This document shows, piece after piece, positions 12,110 through 20,049 of a DNA stretch of 64,000 nt. How positions within the stretch are numbered: position 1 is the first letter of the stretch; each line of letters begins with the position of its first letter. A program made the position numbers and the translations under genes. A model generated the notes under the pieces. That model was not told the origin of the DNA. It did not search any database and saw only the letters and a program-made list of their open reading frames with translations. Source of the DNA: Thermoanaerobaculia bacterium (lineage in GTDB: Bacteria; Acidobacteriota; Thermoanaerobaculia; UBA5066); assembly GCA_963719225.1 (NCBI GenBank), contig CAVRAY010000002.1:256001-320000 (forward strand), in the 5' to 3' direction.

Positions 12110-12829
12110 TCAGGACTCGAGGAAGGAGGATACGGCGCGATGCCATTGATCCTCGGACAGGAGCGCCGGAGGGGGCAGGACGAGCTCGCCGCCGTCCGCC
12201 GCGGCGAGGCCGAGCTCGCCTTCGAGGAAATGCGCGAGGCGCGTCTCGTCGGCGTGGAACCAGGCCCGGGCCTTCGCGCCGGTCGGGAAGCTCTGGTACG
12301 TGTCCGACGCCGGCCGCACCGAGAAGAGCCAGCCTCTCTGGTAGGGCGAGGACTCGACGAGGGACGGGTGCCGCATGACCGACGCGTTCACGGCGACCAC
12401 CGTGCCGGTCACCGGCGAAGGAAGGACCGCCGTTCGGGCCCCGCACGCGACCGTCACCGCCGGCCGTCCGGCGGCCAGCATGCTGCCCGGCTGCGGAAGC
12501 TGGACCCGGGTGACGCCGTGGAGAAGATGTCCCGCGAGTCCGTCGAGTCCCACTCGGAGGCGGCCTCCGGTCTCTTCCAGCCAGGCGTGCGCGGGCGTGT
12601 AGCGGCGCCGCTCCGCGAGAACGAGGCCGTCGACGTCGACGAGGCCGAGGCGGCGCGCCCGGATGCGCCGGAACATCCATGCGGCGGCGCGATACAGACC
12701 CCACCCCGCGAGGATCGGCACGAGGGCGGCGGCAACGAAGGCGAAGAGAAGGAGGGCGCGGATGAGGAGGCCCGCGACGAAGATGACGGCTCCCTCGAGG
12801 ATCGTCAGGAGAGCTTCCATGACGCTCAC
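12110..12829 (-). CDS. Membrane-anchored glycine cleavage H-protein-like protein 2 (no lipoyl-Lys)
   Basis: Long N-terminal hydrophobic segment; YTPAHAWL, VGLD, PSPVTGTVVAVN, PYQRGWLF; C-terminal AADGG; GTGA overlap (ATG alternative at 12820). Confidence 0.85.
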   Translation of the reverse strand: MSVMEALLTILEGAVIFVAGLLIRALLLFAFVAAALVPILAGWGLYRAAAWMFRRIRARRLGLVDVDGLVLAERRRYTPAHAWLEETGGRLRVGLDGLAGHLLHGVTRVQLPQPGSMLAAGRPAVTVACGARTAVLPSPVTGTVVAVNASVMRHPSLVESSPYQRGWLFSVRPASDTYQSFPTGAKARAWFHADETRLAHFLEGELGLAAADGGELVLPPPALLSEDQWHRAVSSFLES

Positions 12830-13173
12830 CTTTCTTTCGGAACGGCGTGGCAGGTGGCGCAATCGTCGAATCCATGCGCGCTCTTGCCGTCGTGGCACTT
12901 TCCGCAGGCGAAGCCCCTTTCCATGTCCTTGTGCTTGAGCTTCGGCGCCTGGGCCTCGGAACGGTGGAGGATCGGGAACAGAGAGGGATGGCAGGTGGTG
13001 CAGTCGGGCCTCGTCTGGTCGACGTGCGACGCATGGCGGAACGTCACGACACCCGGGCTGTCCGTTCCCTGCGGGAATGCGCGGTCTTTCGGAAGGCGGG
13101 GGAGGTTGCCCGCGAGAGCCGCCCCGGCCAGAGAGAGCGCCATGACGAGCACGAGGAGTTTCTTCGGATTCAT
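12826..13173 (-). CDS. Periplasmic triheme c7-type cytochrome
   Basis: Signal peptide; VTFRHASH; three CxxCH (CTTCH, CGKCH, CATCH). Confidence 0.9.
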   Translation of the reverse strand: MNPKKLLVLVMALSLAGAALAGNLPRLPKDRAFPQGTDSPGVVTFRHASHVDQTRPDCTTCHPSLFPILHRSEAQAPKLKHKDMERGFACGKCHDGKSAHGFDDCATCHAVPKER

Positions 13174-13180
13174 GGCGGAC

Positions 13181-17874: not shown

Positions 17875-18421
17875 GAAAGTCTCCGATCTCGTCGGCGTTC
17901 TCGAGGAAGAGGGCCCGGCACGTCTCGCAGAGATCCGGCCGTTTTTGGTCCACGTCTTTCAGGGTCGAGGAGCGCGCCATCGCGCACCGGGGGTTCCGGC
18001 AGTGCAGGAGGCCGAACGTGTGTCCGAGCTCGTGGACGGCTTCGGTCCTGAGGCGCACCCCGAGCCGGGCGGACTCGCCCGGAAGGCCGACGCCGGTCAG
18101 GCGCGCCGTGGATACGACGGCTGCCCGGCCCTTGAGCTGGGCCTCGCCGAACACGAACGTCAGGACCGGAATGAAGAGGTCGGCGTCGGTGAGCCCGAGG
18201 ATGCGCGCGGCGCTCCGCGGCCGCCGAGAAGCGAGCCAGAGGAGCGTGCGATGGGAAGAGTGCTGATTGCGCCGGGCGTCGAAGGCGTCTTCGGGCCCCG
18301 TCGCGGAGAGCTCGAGCCGGGCCGGAGCGCGAAAGACCTGCTCCACGTGCGTGCGAACGCTTTCCAGAAGCTTCTCGTCGGCGTCCGGAGCTCCGATCCA
18401 CCACAGCGCGACCTCGCTCAC
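17837..18421 (-). CDS. Archaemetzincin (peptidase M54) zinc metalloprotease
   Basis: DLFIPVLTFVFGEA; HELGHTFGLLHCRNPRCAM...LCETC; GTGA overlap with kinase stop. Confidence 0.9.
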   Translation of the reverse strand: MSEVALWWIGAPDADEKLLESVRTHVEQVFRAPARLELSATGPEDAFDARRNQHSSHRTLLWLASRRPRSAARILGLTDADLFIPVLTFVFGEAQLKGRAAVVSTARLTGVGLPGESARLGVRLRTEAVHELGHTFGLLHCRNPRCAMARSSTLKDVDQKRPDLCETCRALFLENADEIGDFHEQEEHADPADR

Positions 18422-20049
18422 GTCGCCGCGGCGCATGCCGCGCCGTCCTCGGCGAGCGGAAGGCGGATCGTCATCGTCGTTCCGAGTCCGACGCGGCTCT
18501 CCACCTGCATCGATCCGCCGTGCTTCTCGACGATGCCGTAAACGACGGACAGGCCGAGCCCGGTTCCCTTCTCCTTGGTCGTGAAGAATGGGTCGAAGAT
18601 GCGCGAGACGAGCTCGGGCGCGATGCCGGCACCCGTGTCGGCGACGGAGACCTCGACCTCGCGGCTGCCCGAATAGAAATGAGAGGCGAGGGTGAGCGTG
18701 CCGCCATGGGGCATCGCGTCGCACGCGTTGAGCAGGATGTTCATGAACGCCTGCCTGAGCTGTCCGAAGTCGGCGCTCACGGCGCCGGTGCCTTCGACCT
18801 TCTTGACGAGCGTGATGCCCTGGAGCTGCATCTTGTGCTGCGCGAGGGAGAGCGCCTCGTCGAGCGCGCGGAGCGGGTCGATGATGCGCAGGTCGAGGGG
18901 GCGGGCGCGGGCGAAATCGAGGAGGTTGCGCACGATGACCGTGCAGCGCTCGGTCTCGCGCTGGACGAGGGACAGGTTCTTCAGGCAGGCCGCGCGCGTG
19001 GCCTCGTCCGGCGGCCCGCTCTCGAGCATGCGCGTCATGAGGCGCGCGAAGGTCAGGATGCCGGCGAGGGGATTGTTGATCTCGTGCGCGATCGAAGCCG
19101 AGAGCTGGCCCAACGAGGCGAGCTTTTCGCTCCGCGCGAGGACCTCCTGCGCGCTCTTGAGCGCCGCGGTCCGGTCCTCGACCTGGCGCTCGAGATCGTT
19201 CGTGAGGTTCTCGAGCTCGACGCGCGTCTTCGCGAGGGAGGCGTTCATCTCGTTGAAGGAGTTCGCGAGGATCCCGAGCTCGTCCGACGAACGGACCGCG
19301 AGCGTCGCCGACAGATCGCCGTGGCCCACCCGCTGCGTGGCCTCCACGAGCTCTTTGACGGGCCGGAACACGATGCGGCGCGCGACGCCGTTGACGAGGG
19401 CGGCCAGGGCGATCACCGCGAGAAAGGCGCCGCCCGCCATCCGCAGGGACTGGGTGTGCAGGCTCGCGTCGATGTCCTTCAGGGAGATGCCGACGTCCAC
19501 GACGCCGAGGACGCGCTTCTCCCTGGGATGCGCGTGGCAGGACGCTGTCGCGCAGGCGGATTCGTTGTAGATCGGCGTCACCATGCCGAGCACGCGGTGG
19601 TCGCCCGTCGTGAAGAGCCGGCTGCGGGCGGACGTCGTCGGCGCCACGAGCGGCTGGCCCGCGGCGTGGCACGCGGTACACGCCTCGGCGTCCTTGTCGA
19701 CGGAGCCGCCGATGTCGCGGGCGTCCGTCGAGAACATGACGCGGCCTTCCTTGTTGAGGACGCGCACCTTCTCGACGCCCTCGAGACGTCCGATCGACTC
19801 CATGATCCGGTAGACGTCGTGCCGCTTTTCCTCGAGCATGAGATCCCGCGTGCTCGTCGCGATCGTGCTCGAGAACTGCGCGGCGCCCCGCACGACCTCG
19901 CTGATGAGATGCGCCCGCTGGGAGCGGATCGAGAGGAACGCAAACAGCGAGATCGTGGCGAGGGAGACCGCCGCCGCGGCCGCTGTCAGCTTGAATCCGA
20001 GATGCCGGTGGAACGGGATGCCGAACAGGGATTCCTCCAGCCTGAGCAT
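18418..20049 (-). CDS. Sensor histidine kinase with periplasmic c-type heme motifs, HAMP, HisKA, HATPase
   Basis: Two TMs flanking CTACH and CATASCH; HEINNPL; DTGAGI, FDPFFTTK, GTGLGL. Confidence 0.93.
   Translation of the reverse strand: MLRLEESLFGIPFHRHLGFKLTAAAAAVSLATISLFAFLSIRSQRAHLISEVVRGAAQFSSTIATSTRDLMLEEKRHDVYRIMESIGRLEGVEKVRVLNKEGRVMFSTDARDIGGSVDKDAEACTACHAAGQPLVAPTTSARSRLFTTGDHRVLGMVTPIYNESACATASCHAHPREKRVLGVVDVGISLKDIDASLHTQSLRMAGGAFLAVIALAALVNGVARRIVFRPVKELVEATQRVGHGDLSATLAVRSSDELGILANSFNEMNASLAKTRVELENLTNDLERQVEDRTAALKSAQEVLARSEKLASLGQLSASIAHEINNPLAGILTFARLMTRMLESGPPDEATRAACLKNLSLVQRETERCTVIVRNLLDFARARPLDLRIIDPLRALDEALSLAQHKMQLQGITLVKKVEGTGAVSADFGQLRQAFMNILLNACDAMPHGGTLTLASHFYSGSREVEVSVADTGAGIAPELVSRIFDPFFTTKEKGTGLGLSVVYGIVEKHGGSMQVESRVGLGTTMTIRLPLAEDGAACAAAT

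Follow-up and report, generated by a model that had tools for sequence, protein, structure and literature searches.

We analysed a window of 64,000 nucleotides from the genome of a Thermoanaerobaculia bacterium (Acidobacteriota; GenBank assembly GCA_963719225.1, contig CAVRAY010000002.1, positions 256,001 to 320,000). It carries a cluster of ten genes in which a membrane-bound redox module and two proteins resembling the glycine cleavage H-protein (GcvH) stand beside a sensor kinase, a protease and a sigma-54 activator. All ten genes lie on the minus strand and span positions 12110-20049. Genes overlap at four junctions (-4, -38, -4 and -8), and the other intergenic gaps measure 5-16 bp, with the exception of 152 bp ahead of an open reading frame (ORF) for a small cysteine-rich protein. 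The Pfam domains in the cluster are HAMP/HisKA/HATPase, M54, REC-AAA-HTH, 4Fe-4S, NrfD, c7 and two GCV_H domains. The orientation, order and spacing of the genes agree with a preliminary description of the window, and Pfam and NCBIfam confirmed its domain assignments. From high to low coordinates, the cluster contains the following features, with protein lengths in amino acids (aa) and transmembrane segments abbreviated as TM:

18418-20049, minus strand: sensor histidine kinase, 543 aa, with two TM, a periplasmic Cache-like domain, HAMP and His322
17837-18421, minus strand: archaemetzincin (M54), 194 aa, with an intact HExxHxxGxxHC motif and Cys turn
16495-17874, minus strand: sigma-54 response regulator, 459 aa, REC-AAA-HTH, with Asp56 and GSFTGA at 221
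16464-16480 and 16484-16500, no strand assigned: tandem palindromic enhancer-like sites, consensus GTTGAG-N3-CTCAAC, putative binding sites of the activator
16361-16375, minus strand: sigma-54 -24/-12 site, 18 bases before the Cys-rich ORF
16094-16342, minus strand: Cys-rich protein, 82 aa, with four invariant Cys, likely a metal site
16011-16097, minus strand: conserved 28-aa hydrophobic peptide with a single TM
15088-15999, minus strand: HmcB-like protein, 303 aa, with a Tat signal, 16 Cys for four [4Fe-4S] clusters and a C-terminal TM tail
13866-15095, minus strand: HmcC-like membrane subunit of the NrfD family, 409 aa, 10 TM
13181-13849, minus strand: GcvH-like 1, 222 aa, with an HmcD-like anchor (residues 1-38), an H-protein fold (H-fold) without the lipoyl Lys (G111) and a helical tail with a D194-G-G loop
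12826-13173, minus strand: triheme cytochrome c7, 115 aa, with three CXXCH and an N-terminal hydrophobic signal
12110-12820, minus strand: GcvH-like 2, 236 aa, with an N-terminal TM (no HmcD match), an H-fold without the lipoyl Lys (A128) and a DGG tail (D209)
12058-12082, minus strand: GC-rich hairpin with an 11-bp stem and a weak U-tract, a possible terminator

The iron-sulphur (FeS) protein and its membrane partner had been described as a HybA/HybB-like pair. The pairing of an FeS protein with an NrfD-family subunit was upheld; the NCBIfam scores, however, were higher for HmcB and HmcC (346 and 513 bits, with cut-offs of 420 and 550) than for HybA and HybB (244 and 272 bits, likewise short of their cut-offs). 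The membrane subunit exceeded the cut-off of PF03916, has ten TM and is accompanied by a protein with 16 Cys, as in four-cluster FeS proteins. Identity to the Escherichia coli hydrogenase-2 subunits was 37% for the HmcB-like protein (HybA) and 30% for the HmcC-like protein (HybB). Among 20 quinone and proton positions of HybB taken from PMC8076601, 16 were identical in the HmcC-like protein, including D58, R89, Y99, D109, E133, Y141, E148, E155, H184, H200, E291 and R329, while S105, S129, S190 and E268 differed. Mutant effects have been reported for HybB D58, R89, Y99, E148 and H184 (PMC8076601, PMC13059093). The HmcC profile had no sequence match in the PDB. A quick HmcC tree, which gave long-branch warnings, was used for neighbours only. 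The cytochrome exceeded the cut-offs of PF14522 and TIGR04257 and matched PDB 3ov0 (E 3e-23). The Cys-rich protein had no Pfam or NCBIfam match, and its atlas matches were hypothetical proteins at 0.88-0.90; its residues C11, C22, C42 and C50 were present in 36/36 sequences, and in eight loci (L140, L162, L163, L173, L174, L176, L178, L179) the ORF was fused to a tailed H-fold. A short hydrophobic ORF stood between the Cys-rich gene and hmcB in 23/28 loci.

The conservation of the cluster was studied in 109 loci chosen by their H-folds, of which 107 were counted after removal of a frameshifted locus (L055) and a duplicate contig (L066). These loci are kin and come partly from the same genomes, so that they are not independent; a further 35 of 79 loci (L075-L109), short and with weak matches, were left out. 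Because our simple gene-calling script missed some small genes, presence counts rest on six-frame profiles. HmcB was found in 70 of the 107 loci, HmcC in 76, the haem kinase in 68, the activator in 72, M54 in 69, c7 in 31 and the Cys-rich ORF in 35. Directly ahead of hmcB stood the Cys-rich ORF (28 cases), an H-fold (30), a cytochrome (2), an activator (2), a contig edge (1) or an unlabelled gene (7). GcvH-like 1 was present in 23 of the 24 other genomes of the host genus, the missing genome being 53% complete, and there were no stops among the GcvH-like 1 matches listed. The H-fold family profile matched 76/301 genomes of the host phylum and 28/121 genomes of the Syntrophorhabdus phylum; named carriers include Anaeromyxobacter, Vicinamibacteria, Syntrophorhabdus, Planctomycetota and Gemmatimonadota. 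The cluster genes therefore co-occur well beyond the window, both within the genus and in relatives from several phyla. In four of the loci read (L205, L208, L209, L210), an hmcB-hmcC-kinase-activator-M54 operon had its H-fold gene elsewhere in the genome; each of these operons was preceded by a gene of 98-111 aa, with one CXXCH in 3/4.

Catalytic NiFe or molybdoenzyme genes, tested by two NiFe motifs and by BLAST with two host proteins, lay within ~10 kb in only 4/70 HmcBC loci (L026, L056, L048, L168), so homologous clusters do not consistently contain such a subunit. This result bears on the possibility that the module is the electron-transfer arm of an enzyme whose catalytic part is encoded at another site, such as a formate dehydrogenase (FDH) or hydrogenase, or the remnant of such an operon. 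The nearest HmcC clade does serve an operon of hydrogenase-2 type (L197) as well as one with HmcA (L194), and the host has three molybdopterin-family genes. Yet no NiFe or FeFe hydrogenase match, and no PF00374, was found in the host genome (97% complete, 6% contaminated), and the FDH of the host comes with FeS and cytochrome b subunits of its own. Moreover, the wide conservation of the cluster and the scarcity of nearby catalytic genes make a remnant unlikely. We consider this explanation quite improbable.

Modules without a catalytic subunit are a known kind. Three-gene cytochrome/FeS/HybB-like modules and HmcA-F subunits have been described (PMC10924467), and for the Cbc4 complex of Geobacter (CbcSTU) electron transfer from CbcS to the triheme PpcA has been described (10.1101/2025.04.14.648717). 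Like the cluster, Cbc4 and the three-gene modules combine a cytochrome, a four-cluster FeS protein and a membrane subunit, and they are proposed to feed triheme periplasmic cytochromes (10.1101/2025.04.14.648717; PMC10924467). Cbc4 has an anchored tetrahaem CbcS, whereas the cluster has a c7 with three CXXCH, a distinction drawn from descriptions rather than from sequence comparison; the cluster also has H-folds, a Cys-rich protein, a peptide, a protease and a dedicated two-component system that Cbc4 has not. The Hmc complex of Desulfovibrio (HmcABCDEF) and the related Nhc share with the cluster a tail-anchored HmcB-like FeS protein, an HmcC-like NrfD subunit and probably an HmcD-like peptide after hmcC (PMC10924467). 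In the cluster, however, c7 replaces the 16-haem HmcA, HmcE and HmcF are absent, the HmcD-like helix is fused to an H-fold and the scores fall below the cut-offs. Hydrogenase-2 resembles the cluster in most of the quinone and proton residues tested, but the cluster has no HybO/HybC or maturation genes. The redox part belongs to neither Hmc nor Hyb but varies a known theme, the cytochrome-FeS-NrfD module.

The conserved quinone and proton residues, the fusion of c7 to the NrfD subunit in four loci (L026, L145, L149, L206) and the precedent of modules without catalytic subunits lead us to infer that the output is probably a quinol:cytochrome c oxidoreductase made of HmcBCD and c7, which could run in either direction. 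An oxidoreductase of this type under an adjacent haem kinase and sigma-54 activator, as the preliminary description had proposed, appears likely given its conservation across genomes. Its claim that the composition was unprecedented held in part: catalytic-subunit-free modules have been described and c7 is optional (30/70 HmcB plus HmcC loci), but the combination of H-fold, protease and two-component system was not found in the literature. The full-text literature, with subscription papers and the supplements of PMC10924467 outside our reach, gave no description or characterisation of the cluster or of the tailed H-fold; PMC5701242, as far as available, deals with canonical gcv genes, and none of the cluster terms was found in the text of PMC11887813. 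The cassette thus appears to be undescribed, while the redox module alone would be an ordinary candidate for quinol:cytochrome c oxidoreduction.

Pfam and NCBIfam domains and sequence motifs confirmed the first three genes as the trio named earlier, a haem-c kinase, an M54 protease and a sigma-54 activator. The kinase sensor carries two haem motifs, CXXCH at 124-128 and CX4CH at 166-172, which were present in 67/69 and 64/69 of its homologues, respectively. Its matches to Cache-type families were weak (sCache_3_2, E 8e-6; PF21563, E 5e-4; both below cut-off), and it had no meaningful sequence match in the PDB. It shares a periplasmic Cache-like domain with CXXCH before HAMP with the haem-c Cache sensors (sCache_heme; GSU0582/0935-type), but PF11845, on which the definition of sCache_heme rests, gave no match. 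A second haem motif also occurs in Adeh_2011/3383, two-motif haem sensors noted in Anaeromyxobacter (PMC3831638). Binding of nitric oxide (NO) was shown for one related haem-c Cache-type receptor (PMC12889525); NO or redox state might be the signal of the kinase, which we regard as a lead only.

The protease exceeded the NCBIfam cut-off for archaemetzincins (NF033823; 151 bits vs 145). It shares with this family the active-site motif and Cys turn, and the consensus HExxHxxGxxHCx4CxMx17CxxC (PMC3427221) is present with a spacer of 16 instead of 17 residues. The catalytic Glu is kept in the cluster protein, the active-site motif was intact in 63/65 homologues, and the family profile matched archaemetzincins in the PDB (E 1e-44). 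Since no signal peptide was seen, the protein is presumably cytoplasmic. What distinguishes it from known archaemetzincins is a constant association with three other components, namely a kinase, a sigma-54 activator and the tailed H-folds, the last being a candidate natural partner for a protein family whose biological roles are poorly known. The host also has a second, distant archaemetzincin (29% identical; contig C1, 1176145-1176684), ~18 kb from a cluster resembling alternative complex III (ACIII).

By itself, the sigma-54 pattern is not enriched in the window (23 matches, with 32 expected by chance). The promoter proposed before the operon is borne out instead by conservation, as the strict motif ahead of the Cys-rich ORF was kept in 20/35 relatives. 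The palindrome GTTGAG-N3-CTCAAC was found in 28/36 upstream regions vs 2.1 in base shuffles, a control that flatters the palindrome because the consensus was derived from the same regions. Across the host genome, an enhancer and a sigma-54 site were paired once among 524 sigma-54-like sites, at the cluster operon. No wider regulon emerged in the host, the other top enhancer-like matches being without a sigma-54 site; weak sites could be missed. The restriction of this pair to the cluster favours the operon as a regulated output rather than a pure sensor. Between enhancer and promoter, positions 16401-16413 form a putative IHF-like site, going by the IHF consensus, and a similar AT-rich block occurs in close relatives. 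RNA runs yielded small shares only, as contigs of relatives, and have no bearing on expression or operon limits.

Alignment with the canonical GcvH of the host confirmed that both GcvH-like proteins are lipoyl-less, the lipoyl lysine aligning to G111 and A128. This column was Lys in only 2/141 representatives, whereas the D-G-G of the tail was 92-94% conserved. A lipoate-based role of the H-folds is ruled out by the missing lysine. A model of GcvH-like 1 from a 128-row alignment reached a pLDDT of 90.8, compared to 37 from sequence without an alignment, and showed an H-protein fold (TM-score 0.92 to 1onl) with a less ordered DGG loop; GcvH-L (5a35) was also matched. The cluster proteins differ from GcvH, GcvH-L and the lipoate-binding LbpA in the missing lysine, the N-terminal membrane anchor and the ~60-residue tail with its DGG loop. 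As described earlier, the cluster has no glycine cleavage P, T or L genes and no lipoate ligase, but this does not extend to the genome, which carries gcvT-H-PA-PB and a lipoate ligase-family gene elsewhere. An N-terminal TM was present in 117/141 H-folds, and K/R were richer after than before the TM in 113/117. This charge bias suggests that the H-fold faces the cytoplasm, and a periplasmic location is disfavoured.

The N-terminus of GcvH-like 1 links the H-fold to the redox module. Its residues 1-42 matched, weakly, one of 18,950 families, HmcD (NF045712; E 0.045, 13.7 bits). HmcD was also matched by the N-termini of 9/22 GcvH-like 1 homologues (best E 2.8e-5), one of which scored 33.1 bits vs a cut-off of 34. 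We approached this link from the HmcC side as well, by reading 20 chosen loci. In four operons, one of hydrogenase-2 type, one of HmcA/Tmc type and two with pentahaem proteins (L193, L194, L196, L197), hmcC was followed by a free peptide of 41-50 residues. Three of these four peptides matched HmcD, and a profile of the free peptides matched the N-terminus of GcvH-like 1 with 98.4% probability (E 8e-15). An H-fold gene stood after hmcC in 44/73 cases, with the HmcD-type KxxEY motif in 39 of those. GcvH-like 1 is thus probably a fusion of HmcD and an H-fold in the place of hmcD. From these sequence matches, its HmcD-like helix would be expected to dock on HmcC; a complex prediction of HmcC with residues 1-50 of GcvH-like 1 scored 0.31 vs a mark of 0.32. 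In the hydrogenase-2-type operon (L197:7144-12891), the free HmcD-like peptide lies between the membrane subunit and the large subunit. Anaeromyxobacter-type genomes (L164:8046-12424; L033, L038, L044, L045) carry extra stand-alone H-folds with HmcD anchors, and one tandem pair of these copies adjoins an M54 gene.

The preliminary description saw the H-folds as structural or coupling subunits of the oxidoreductase. A strict form of this view gives them no function beyond structure or assembly and takes the protease for a bystander that came along with the regulatory genes. In its favour are the HmcD-like anchor, the place after hmcC and the multihaem-TM-H-fold fusions (P0169, P0200), yet only the anchor looks structural. 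Beyond the HmcBC context, however, the H-fold follows M54 and the two-component system across unrelated complexes. It was found fused to a receiver domain, to periplasmic multihaem domains with a TM, to the Cys-rich ORF, to a Qmo/MvhD-like protein and, behind NuoE-NuoF, to 2Fe-2S/4Fe-4S domains. H-folds head or are fused to loci of NuoEF/FeS, Qrc-like, HdrL-MetFV-NuoEF, HdrCBA, Qmo-like and true HmcA type, and the soluble, Cys-finger and REC-fused forms go with unrelated cytoplasmic complexes. Among 20 loci of a second phylum, 18 had the activator and 14 had M54, but only 8 had HmcC; those without HmcC head HdrL-MetFV-NuoEF, HdrCBA, SQR or FDH genes, or are oriented divergently from a true hmcA. 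In addition, the four loci with a free HmcD after hmcC have no H-fold there.

The tail in particular follows the protease. Among the 301 genomes of the host phylum, tailed H-folds occurred with cluster-type M54 in 60/61 cases and with HmcC in 54/61, whereas tail-less H-folds, defined by a profile match ending by position 213, occurred with M54 in 0/15 and with HmcC in 15/15. Four tail-less loci were read; each had the order hmcB-hmcC-kinase-TM-REC-H-fold, without DGG, activator or M54. The tail thus co-occurs more tightly with M54 than with HmcC, and we rate a purely structural role of the H-folds as rather improbable. That the H-fold goes with the protease and the two-component system in redox complexes of unrelated kinds points to control and not to electron coupling; in the lysine-less tailed H-fold we probably see a module for control, not a subunit with structural duties only.

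A different explanation holds that the whole unit is a redox sensor, in which HmcBC senses the state of the quinone pool and relays it to the kinase through c7 or through the H-folds, while carrying few electrons in bulk. In 19/73 cases the kinase gene comes immediately after hmcC, operons without Tat and c7 exist, and a few cassettes adjoin hydrogenase operons. NuoE-NuoF-FeS::H-fold operons equally have no catalytic domain, and the sensor of their kinases can be a hydrogenase-like FeS domain. Such a sensor would, however, regulate only itself in the host, given the single pair of enhancer and promoter. Furthermore, the proton-path residues are kept, and kinase-activator-M54-H-fold cassettes occur without nearby HmcBC in 9/74 well-flanked loci. 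A sensor of this kind therefore seems unlikely to us.

With odds slightly better than even, we favour an HmcBCD-like plus c7 oxidoreductase that is switched by the haem kinase and sigma-54, and in which the cytoplasm-facing H-folds, instead of carrying electrons, would work with the protease as a handle for control. In this mechanism, a haem ligand such as NO, or the periplasmic redox state, would activate the kinase. Judging from the conserved sites, the activator would then bind the tandem enhancer and fire the sigma-54 promoter. Family knowledge and the kept residues suggest that HmcC would exchange electrons with quinone on one side and with the four-cluster HmcB on the other, and that the periplasmic HmcB would pass them to c7 and the periplasmic cytochrome pool, or the reverse. 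The HmcD-like helix, whose homology is documented above, may hold GcvH-like 1 on HmcC. In the weakest step, the archaemetzincin might bind or cut the exposed DGG loop and so modulate the complex in its activity or turnover; where a lineage lacks the protease, this role would pass to a fused receiver domain.

Several observations weigh against this mechanism. A whole-genome HmcD search of the host returned nothing at E 0.05, and every HmcB, HmcC and HmcD score stays below its curated cut-off. The family-conserved NrfD serine, which is dispensable in HybB and essential in QrcD (PMC13059093), is Ala149 in the HmcC-like protein. No c7 was found in 40/70 loci and ~29/70 HmcB homologues have no Tat motif (e.g. 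L113, L117, L119, L120, L124, L127, L133), both of which are poorly explained by an output role; the Tat-less homologues have no obvious co-exported partner, yet their C-tail is still present together with the basic residue that follows. With regard to the protease, 14 of the 15 tail-less genomes belong to one family, so that the link between tail and protease rests on few independent events. DGG occurred without M54 in one genome and TGG with M54 in four loci, and in M54-less loci 46/67 H-folds keep DGG. Lastly, M54 relatives were present in 17/225 genomes without a strong H-fold match, and 3/5 of those rechecked had only canonical GcvH.

More generally, the tailed lysine-less H-fold could be the output domain of a control system for anaerobic electron-transfer complexes of the Hmc, Qrc, Nuo, Hdr and Qmo types, to which it would be attached (in the cluster by fusion to HmcD) and which it would switch either through the action of a dedicated archaemetzincin on its DGG loop or, where a receiver is fused, through phosphorylation of the latter; we put this forward tentatively, as a generalization that may well prove wrong. 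If true, the many proteins wrongly named 'glycine cleavage H protein' would find an explanation, bacterial archaemetzincins would gain a natural target and HmcD would acquire a role as a docking helix for regulators. It would also hint that anaerobes of soils and sediments control their respiratory complexes post-translationally. Tests are feasible in carriers that are in culture, such as Anaeromyxobacter.

Further variants of the cassette were observed. In three loci (L147:9624-12647, L155:6470-10161, L138:1722-5189), NuoE-NuoF is followed by a 2Fe-2S/4Fe-4S protein that ends in an H-fold instead of a catalytic domain. Kinases with an N-terminal FeFe-hydrogenase-like FeS domain (L140:4828-6858, by Pfam; L155:2002-4062) belong to the same cassette, and in loci with cytoplasmic complexes the kinase input is often PAS/GAF-like (by eye) or hydrogenase-like FeS rather than haem. 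One search for longer fused H-fold forms found none among 7999 crowded candidates, which is contradicted by the fusions found otherwise. Plasmids gave only matches of canonical GcvH length.

At the downstream end, the operon had been described as ending in a hairpin. The 11-bp stem is present, but its U-tract is weak and a terminator scan did not call it. Beyond it, positions 11149-12018 (minus strand) encode a lipoprotein-like protein of 289 aa without a Pfam or NCBIfam match, which follows the cluster in 11 close relatives and is itself followed by a 7-haem protein in three loci; this gene may be part of the cluster transcript if the hairpin is leaky. At the other end, a 4-TM holin-like gene (20112-20474, minus strand) and a small Cys-rich zinc-ribbon-like gene (20499-20930, plus strand) accompany the cluster together in the genus, in divergent orientation. 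Elsewhere, the host encodes the ACIII-like cluster with an oxidase, the FDH and a decahaem outer-membrane-type cluster, all named from their domains; the highest number of CXXCH motifs in any host ORF was 11. A second quinone module without a catalytic subunit lies at ~2.84 Mb of contig C1 (L022:7737-14047), where a Rieske protein and a cytochrome b fused to a 9-haem domain are encoded with a tetrahaem protein, an FeS protein and NrfD. A multihaem porin-type conduit of the host, ACIII with its oxidase and this second cytochrome-FeS-NrfD cluster are possible partners of the module.

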